14,827 nucleotides of DNA from a virus (Duplodnaviria; Heunggongvirae; Uroviricota; Caudoviricetes). How positions within the stretch are numbered: position 1 is the stretch's first letter; every line of letters starts with the position of its first letter. The DNA lies in the IMG/VR virus record IMGVR_UViG_2534681999_000018, positions 1 to 14,827 of that record, one strand, 5' to 3'. The notes below the pieces were generated by a model, which searched no databases, had not been told where the DNA came from, and saw only the letters and a program-made list of their open reading frames with translations. A program made the translations under genes and the position numbers. Positions 4,723 to 4,916 of the stretch are shown here, piece after piece.

Positions 4723-4743
4723 ATCTGATTTCCTCGTTATTAG

Positions 4744-4825
4744 GTGGCTGACAGTATACACACAAGAAAACGGAAAAACACTATTGACGTGGCTGACACC
4801 CGTTACTAATATAGTGGCTGACACC
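4744..4825. promoter_or_regulatory. Three direct repeats GTGGCTGACA (4744-4753, 4789-4798, 4814-4823) over divergent promoters
   Basis: Exact 10-mer repeated three times; repeats 2 and 3 extend to GTGGCTGACACC; repeat 2 lies in the spacer of the + promoter, repeat 3 at its start site, repeat 1 just downstream of a minus-strand TATACT. Confidence 0.6.
4784..4812 (+). promoter_or_regulatory. Sigma-70-like promoter for the rightward early operon
   Basis: TTGACG (4784-4789), 17-bp spacer, TAATAT (4807-4812). Confidence 0.55.
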
Positions 4826-4916
4826 TTTATCAAGGTAATCGATGAAAAGACAAAGCCCCGCAAGTGTCGTTACCACTCGCAGGGCTTCTAACCAACAACG
4901 TAAACTAGGAGCCGTT

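Follow-up and report, generated by a model that had tools for sequence, protein, structure and literature searches.

In the immI region of phage P22, a small gene encoding an autoregulated repressor of the ribbon-helix-helix (RHH) type diverges from the operon that it silences, its operators overlap the -35 and -10 elements and the start site, and a short antisense RNA, sar, lies over one of this operon's ribosome-binding sites. In plasmid pMV158, an RHH repressor, CopG, and a counter-transcribed RNA, RNAII, jointly restrain an operon needed for the initiation of replication (PMC4485353). A comparable arrangement is predicted here for a 14,827-nt stretch of DNA, called the window throughout (positions 1 to 14,827 of IMG/VR record IMGVR_UViG_2534681999_000018), which carries a phage-parasitising E. 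coli island of the type of the Gram-negative phage-inducible chromosomal islands (PICIs) and in which the gene of a 59-aa RHH protein of the YlcI/YnfO family diverges from an operon leading from an icd-like gene to a replication helicase gene. Comparison of related loci makes it likely that this protein binds three short sites located on the two promoters, represses the icd-like/replication operon and controls its own synthesis, and points with somewhat less assurance to an antisense RNA of about 80 nt over the Shine-Dalgarno sequence and the start codon of the icd-like gene. P22 immI (Mnt/Arc with sar RNA) and pMV158 (CopG with RNAII) are the closest functional analogues of the locus as predicted, and the design itself, an RHH repressor on divergent promoters combined with an antisense RNA, is classical.

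The likeness to P22 immI consists of the divergent RHH gene with predicted operators over the target promoter and would extend to an antisense RNA over a ribosome-binding site, predicted here from structure, strand asymmetry, a terminator and a weak promoter-like site. The locus differs from immI in containing one RHH gene where P22 has two, three separate 11-bp sites in place of one 21-bp or 17-bp operator, an operon for an icd-like protein and a helicase, hence for replication, in place of the antirepressor gene ant, and in belonging to a satellite rather than to a phage; similarity to Arc is marginal and no homology to Mnt or Arc was established. As for pMV158 (PMC4485353), copG is co-transcribed with repB whereas the RHH gene of the window is divergent. 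RNAII acts on the repB leader itself, where the RNA predicted here would target the first small gene, and the element is a rolling-circle plasmid rather than an integrated island.

The 10-bp repeat GTGGCTGACA occurs with no mismatch at 4744-4753, 4789-4798 and 4814-4823, without a fourth copy anywhere in the window, and all three copies are thus confined to the 194-bp region 4723-4916, on two back-to-back promoters. When one mismatch is allowed, a single additional site is found at 11134, which equals the number that chance predicts, and the chance expectation of three identical 10-mers in ~80 bp is, by our own estimate, roughly 1e-6. Extension of the repeats gives a full unit of 11 bp with the form GTG-N5-CAC, defining the predicted operators O1, O2 and O3 (Table 1). 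The rightward promoter P_R matches 9 of 12 consensus positions, and the leftward TATACT of the RHH promoter P_L overlaps repeat 1 by 1-2 nt. An earlier note on this DNA had described three exact 10-bp repeats, two of them lying in the spacer and at the start site of a near-consensus TTGACG-17-TAATAT promoter, and a leftward TATACT beside the first; the mismatch scan and the promoter scan agree with the former two descriptions, and the hexamer is indeed present, though without a clear -35; of 63 non-identical related loci, 47 have it equally far from site 1.

Related loci were drawn from Enterobacterales reference genomes (77, of which 69 were usable) and from IMG/VR (80). The three-site layout is kept in 65 of the 69 usable genome loci and in 56 of the 80 IMG/VR loci, about 120 islands in all, the IMG/VR set with an unchanged mapping of protein type to site type. 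The conserved geometry places O1 at +21 from the RHH ATG, O2 at 45 bp from O1 and abutting the -35, which has the form TTGA(C/A/G)N in all related loci with O2 starting on its last base. The distance from O2 to O3 ranges from 22 to 36 bp, O3 can be direct or inverted, and its start lies between -2 and +11 relative to the end of the -10. Such variability of spacing and orientation among the aligned loci argues against a fixed cooperative geometry. The Omega repressor is likewise an RHH protein recognising short promoter-region repeats, direct or inverted, but its contiguous 7-bp heptads are bound cooperatively, whereas the sites described here, each of 11 bp, are spaced at 22-45 bp.

Further evidence comes from the way in which the site core varies with the protein. 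Sites inside one locus are identical at 9.46 of 10 positions, as compared to 5.92 of 10 between loci whose RHH proteins differ in the N-terminal beta-strand. Identity of the central 5 bp is 0.96 with the same beta-strand and 0.31 with a different one, while the corresponding values for the surrounding intergenic DNA are 0.77 and 0.60, and identity at the GTG and CAC edges stays at 0.93-0.96 in every comparison. The central 5 bp vary between islands yet match at all three sites of an island, and they lie above their surroundings in conservation inside a type and below them between types. The change is concerted across the three copies, a pattern for which shared ancestry alone does not account. 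Within the protein, residue 14 holds 2.71 of the 3.28 bits of mutual information with the operator class and residue 12 holds 2.16 bits, as against 1.1-1.6 bits for positions of equal variability, among them 27, 54 and 58. Residues 12, 14 and 16 are alternate, outward-facing positions of the predicted strand, and R16 is invariant. The window has K12 and E14 together with the site core GCTGA, and EcCICFT073 has A12 and K14. Because residues 14 and 12 are the most informative on the operator core and R16 does not vary, reading of DNA by alternate residues of the N-terminal beta-strand, as in RHH proteins, is indirectly indicated.

Neighbouring genes do not follow the site type in this manner. 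Flanking genes with at least 85% identity are accompanied by unrelated operator classes in 20 of 38 icd-like pairs and in 36 of 59 pairs of left-hand genes, while RHH pairs at the same level of identity have site cores that differ slightly, nearly always by one central base, with one pair having closely related cores. Nine loci of Xenorhabdus and Pectobacterium contain the GTGGCTGACAC sites of the window together with an RHH protein 72-79% identical to its own, and this is the sole window protein that they share beyond remote similarity; seven of the loci have a distant integrase (24-27%), and one has an icd-like match at 42%. The nearest homologues of the helicase, Bro-N and icd-like proteins, in turn, are found in loci of other site types. 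The whole module is present in 144 of 5426 E. coli genomes, and further E. coli genomes match the conserved 3' half of the RHH gene alone, with diverging beta-strand and sites. Matches to other E. coli islands (042 and Shiga toxin-producing E. coli (STEC) strains) begin exactly at the RHH stop codon (4544-4553), with the Bro-N gene to the left replaced, and this start marks a recombination boundary at the edge of a cassette. As the sites track RHH residues rather than flanking genes, and as match boundaries fall at the gene, the RHH gene with its sites behaves as an exchangeable specificity cassette, of which at least 14 types can be distinguished.

An exact 13-nt direct repeat, AACCGCATTCAGT, at 4408-4420 and 5134-5146, brackets the RHH/icd-like module at a distance of 726 bp. 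We estimate the chance expectation of such a repeat at about 0.005 per 800 bp, and the repeat may represent a scar or a point at which modules are exchanged. Some single genomes hold four copies of the module, each with its own beta-strand and operator type, as in Xenorhabdus innexi (loci L012, L027, L029 and L063) and X. mauleonii (L006, L030, L062 and L067). A test, of little power, for avoidance of the same operator type by co-resident islands gave no excess over chance: 24 of 25 within-genome pairs differ where ~23 would do so by chance (P = 0.41).

The RHH protein is a member of the YlcI/YnfO family (NCBIfam NF041551; score 60.6 bits, curated cutoff 30, E = 1.1e-16), a small family with 98 representatives among 1.84 billion proteins. 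An AlphaFold (AF2) model built with 34 homologues, with a predicted local distance difference test (pLDDT) score of 88.7, has an extended N-terminus followed by two helices, the predicted beta-alpha-alpha fold of the ribbon-helix-helix (Arc/MetJ/CopG) superfamily, and the RHH assignment proposed previously for the 59-aa protein is hence supported at the level of the fold. Alignment with Arc by hhalign is in register, at a probability of just 11%, a marginal similarity that is not significant. By its predicted fold the protein is thus placed in the superfamily, outside every curated Pfam RHH family. The family is named after YlcI of E. coli K-12, whose gene in prophage DLP12 (locus L079, 6252-6840) directly precedes the cos site of the prophage and is divergent from nohD; K-12 YlcI belongs to a more distant branch, similar to loci L077 and L078, and is uninformative for the RHH/operator module.

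A second level of control is suggested by two hairpins lying between site 3 and the icd-like start codon, which are kept in 42 diverse loci (alignment A2). In a pairing test made on a structure that we specified, 89.8% of cells pair, as compared to 28-46% with the partner columns slid, compensatory changes occur in 13 of 16 pairs and the observed score was reached by 0 of 500 shuffles. Plus-strand mismatches in hairpin 1 comprise 56 A.C cells, which are G.U on the minus strand, versus 2 G.U cells, with a similar asymmetry in hairpin 2 (14 A.C versus 1 G.U), and the minus-strand hairpin is more stable than that of the plus strand in 41 of 42 sequences. The plus-strand leader was rejected as the selected RNA, since its A.C mismatches correspond to minus-strand G.U pairs. 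Hairpin 1 is followed on the minus strand by GCUGUUUUU, which in the window reads GUCUUUUC. The predicted 82-nt minus-strand RNA (4923 to 4842) has a folding energy of -35.5 kcal/mol and z = -4.9, versus z = -1.7 for the plus-strand leader, and its first hairpin exposes an anti-Shine-Dalgarno sequence in the loop with pairing over the start codon. A minus-strand -10-like hexamer is found at a fixed offset to the right of the start codon in most loci, also in those whose first gene has an unrelated N-terminus. Given the minus-strand fit, the terminator and this promoter-like site, the hairpins probably form an antisense RNA.

When the whole window was searched against Rfam, no match was obtained at E <= 1 and no membership in the C4, isrK, sar or ctRNA families; the best local match on the minus strand is ctRNA_p42d, which is below threshold (14.4 bits versus 50, E = 1.7). 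In P1, P4 and some Gram-negative PICIs, the immunity RNAs C4, CI and isrK represent an RNA control layer in the 'Bro zone' beside an icd-like gene (PMC10111431). These, however, are trans-acting and released from the sense leader by cleavage, in contrast to the cis-encoded antisense RNA predicted here. In the 5' part of the icd-like ORF, a terminator-like plus-strand hairpin, CACACAAACGGCCTTTGTGTG followed by GCGTTTTCTG, is present at 4952-4981; it overlaps the candidate antisense -35, appears specific to the window and might attenuate P_R transcripts.

Sequence and comparison show the layout, the predicted fold, the covariation of sites with protein and the strand-specific RNA structure; from these we infer binding, the sign of the regulation, expression of the antisense RNA and the manner in which induction overcomes repression, which together outline the following scheme. 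One RHH dimer would occupy each GTG-N5-CAC site, its two-stranded beta-sheet reading the central 5 bp with a specificity set by residues 12 and 14. At O2 and O3 the protein would occlude RNA polymerase at the strong P_R and so silence the icd-like/helicase replication operon while the island is integrated, and at O1, over the -10 and +1 of the weak P_L, it would limit its own synthesis; repression of the replication operon with autoregulation is proposed because the sites are located on P_R and on the RHH gene's own -10 and +1. The ~80-nt RNA, transcribed leftward from just inside the icd-like gene by a promoter convergent with P_R and about 100 bp away, would terminate beside O3 and bind leaky P_R transcripts by pairing over their Shine-Dalgarno sequence and start codon. 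Induction would probably proceed via the AlpA pathway, with relief possibly achieved by alpA-bro transcription that reads through the 4432-4454 hairpin, weak on its plus-strand side, and continues antisense to the RHH gene, by an AlpA-dependent anti-repressor such as the Bro-N protein, or by promoter interference.

The same module is found in the model island EcCICFT073 (E. coli CFT073, NC_004431 1380473-1380860; locus L081, 9474-9860), with the RHH gene C_RS30120, the RHH beta-strand QALKARV, three GTGGG(C/G)(C/G)ACA(C/G) sites of which sites 2 and 3 are GTGGGCCACAC, and the same leader hairpin. In this island helper phages induce alpA, AlpA activates itself, and AlpA overexpression alone leads to replication in a helper-free cell; uncontrolled replication is toxic, and the helper-encoded inducer has not yet been identified (PMC6092414). 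The helper signal thus probably enters at alpA and, AlpA being the helper-responsive switch in EcCICFT073, relief of the RHH block would lie downstream of AlpA or be bypassed. What the earlier note proposed can accordingly be divided: an autoregulated repressor of the early/replication operon agrees with the site layout and the site-protein covariation, and is retained in that comparative sense, while a master repressor relieved by a helper signal does not agree with AlpA as the helper-responsive master regulator, sufficient without a helper in EcCICFT073 (PMC6092414). Taken as a whole, the RHH protein with its three operators, along with the antisense RNA, may constitute the maintenance/immunity switch of Gram-negative PICIs, present unannotated in EcCICFT073, with the 14 or more exchangeable types representing satellite 'immunity groups' and with AlpA inducing by overriding the switch through read-through, an anti-repressor or interference, rather than by simple activation. 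This wider proposal is a tentative one, to which we give a little less than an even chance.

A 2018 study of PICIs sought a repressor and left the global repressor of Gram-negative islands unclear, without considering the RHH module of EcCICFT073; later work described integration, Bro, replication and late zones together with immunity RNAs, not the RHH protein, and a 2026 survey lists YlcI/YnfO merely as an accessory gene of cf-PICIs. In the literature outside subscription-only journals no function was found for YlcI/YnfO, nor operators or antisense RNA in these islands, and no discussion of a repressor was found in the literature checked on EcCICFT073. The module would thus add a candidate repressor, operators defined at the level of single bases, a two-residue specificity code and an RNA control layer, all in the tractable EcCICFT073, and may provide a candidate answer to the question of whether Gram-negative PICIs have a repressor at all. 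It also bears on how a near-consensus replication promoter is silenced in an integrated island and how AlpA gets past this silencing. Physiology aside, PICIs are being engineered as delivery vehicles, for which orthogonal repressor-operator pairs could serve as parts.

Several observations weigh against this reading of the module. Support for binding and repression is comparative throughout. The RHH protein gave no Pfam match at E <= 0.01, with only faint similarity to CB_ParB_C and PSK_trans_fac, its sequence gave no match in a search of the PDB, and a Foldseek search with its model was uninformative. P_L was not called by the promoter scan and has no recognisable -35. The candidate antisense promoter is weak (8 of 12 positions) and was not reported by the standard scan, and that of EcCICFT073 has a poor -35. 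A Mantel/partial-correlation test was unable to separate the beta-strand from the remaining protein, because the two are inherited together, and the per-residue mutual information and the neighbouring-gene test described above were used in its place. Since AlpA overexpression alone induces EcCICFT073, itself a carrier of the module, the RHH repressor would not be the sole gatekeeper, or would be easily overridden.

Among other explanations, the one that fares best assigns the module not to lysogeny-type maintenance but to control of copy number, or feedback, once the island has been excised and replicates, resembling CopG and RNAII of pMV158. With increasing gene dosage both inhibitors would become more abundant and dampen the rep operon. 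An RHH protein together with a counter-transcribed RNA on an operon ending in a replication helicase, the pMV158 precedent itself (PMC4485353), the toxicity of uncontrolled EcCICFT073 replication and the plasmid ctRNA as the best, albeit sub-threshold, minus-strand Rfam match (E = 1.7) all fit this explanation. However, the near-consensus P_R would fire constitutively in the single-copy integrated state unless tightly repressed, the RHH gene and the rep operon are divergent, unlike copG, which shares a transcript with repB, and the antisense RNA would target the first small gene and not the helicase gene. Copy-number control is the less likely of the two roles but a serious alternative, and it is compatible with a maintenance switch.

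Direct inactivation of the RHH protein as master repressor by a helper-phage protein, in the manner of Stl of staphylococcal islands, was the model of the earlier note. In Gram-positive PICIs, Stl/Rpr are indeed satellite-encoded repressors divergent from the replication module that keep the island quiescent, but they represent another protein type, relieved by direct binding of a helper protein, whereas the fold here is RHH and the helper-responsive component is AlpA (PMC6092414). The divergent position of the regulator and the fact that the helper-encoded inducer of EcCICFT073 is still to be found would agree with such a model; against it, the helper of EcCICFT073 acts on alpA transcription, AlpA suffices without a helper, and the RHH fold is unlike Stl. 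Moreover, a tblastn search of 50,697 phage records revealed no RHH homologue and hence gave no evidence for a helper-encoded twin or helper cross-talk. Direct relief by a helper protein is thus considered improbable, whereas a repressor acting downstream of AlpA, or bypassed by it, is preferred.

It is highly improbable that a different island protein (AlpA, the helicase/initiator, Bro-N or the icd-like protein) binds the repeats, or that the repeats are iterons, with the RHH gene as a bystander. Iterons are typically direct repeats close to replication genes, and AlpA is a DNA-binding activator of island genes. However, separate origin repeats with the form AAAAGTGAGG(N)G lie past the helicase gene (7700-7884) and are unrelated in sequence to the operators, and the operator type does not track the helicase, for which reasons the operators were rejected as iterons. 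AlpA, Bro-N, the icd-like protein and the helicase were rejected as site binders, since none of their genes tracks the site type: apart from the one 42% icd-like match, none of these proteins is common to loci of one operator type, their closest homologues reside in loci with other operator types, and the site core tracks RHH residues 12 and 14. A type II toxin-antitoxin module, with the RHH protein as antitoxin and the sites as merely its autoregulatory operator, is hardly credible and was rejected, given that the RHH gene is monocistronic in the window with no co-transcribed partner, a terminator and the convergent Bro-N gene lie past it, and two of the three sites are located on the other promoter.

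Table 1. Coordinates of predicted and annotated features in the 14,827-nt window (an empty cell: no entry in the analysis).
Feature	Position	Strand	Remarks
Integrase gene	2329-3567		
Small AlpA-like helix-turn-helix (HTH) gene	3560-3784		
Bro-N gene	3844-4422	+	Convergent with the RHH gene
Intrinsic terminator past RHH gene	4432-4454 (4454 to 4432)	-	8-bp stem, 6 GC pairs, then TTTGTTTTGT; terminator scan
59-aa RHH protein gene (YlcI/YnfO family)	4543-4722	-	Putative repressor; open reading frame (ORF), GAGGAA Shine-Dalgarno
Operator O1, GTGGCTGACAG	4744-4754	+	Predicted; over -10 and start site of RHH promoter
P_L -10 hexamer TATACT	4753-4758 (4758 to 4753)	-	Read from sequence
Rightward promoter P_R	4784-4812	+	TTGACG (4784-4789), 17-bp spacer, TAATAT (4807-4812); promoter scan
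Operator O2, GTGGCTGACAC	4789-4799	+	Predicted; in P_R spacer, first base is last base of -35
Operator O3, GTGGCTGACAC	4814-4824	+	Predicted; over expected P_R start site, 2 nt past -10
Hairpin 1 and U-tract	4842-4888	-	Predicted terminator of leftward antisense RNA; terminator scan: 15 pairs, then GTCTTTTCAT
Hairpin 2 of predicted antisense RNA	4890-4922	-	Anti-Shine-Dalgarno in loop, stem over icd-like start codon
Candidate antisense promoter	4930-4958 (4958 to 4930)	-	TTGTGT, 17 bp, TATGAT; custom scan, 8/12 match
icd-like gene	4917-5114	+	NCBIfam phage_ICD_like
Four small ORFs and DUF4222 gene	5107-6304	+	Pfam DUF4222
RepA-type helicase gene	6301-7701	+	Pfam AAA_25
Putative regulated operon, icd-like gene to helicase	4917-7701	+	ORFs overlap or abut
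Origin-like repeats (iterons)	7700, 7785, 7868 (with variants; 7700-7911)		AAAAGTGAGG(N)G; directly past helicase gene
SSB, PerC/Rpp-like, lambda E-type capsid, lambda D-type decoration and Nu1-like genes	8150-12229		
phoQ, host flank	13367-14827		

Judged by its gene content, the window is a roughly 11-kb PICI of the EcCICFT073 type adjoining phoQ, since an integrase, an AlpA-like gene, a Bro zone, a replication gene with iterons and captured lambda-type late genes were all found. Pfam matches comprise integrase, HTH_17 (weak), Bro-N, AAA_25, SSB, PerC, Phage_cap_E, HDPD and Nu1. EcCICFT073 itself adjoins phoQ with an organisation as in the window, and a near-identical island is present in tqsA of E. 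coli 042. The lambda E-type capsid, D-type decoration and Nu1-like genes lie within 9652-12229, and the PerC-family gene at 8571-8843 corresponds to the Rpp packaging redirector of EcCICFT073.
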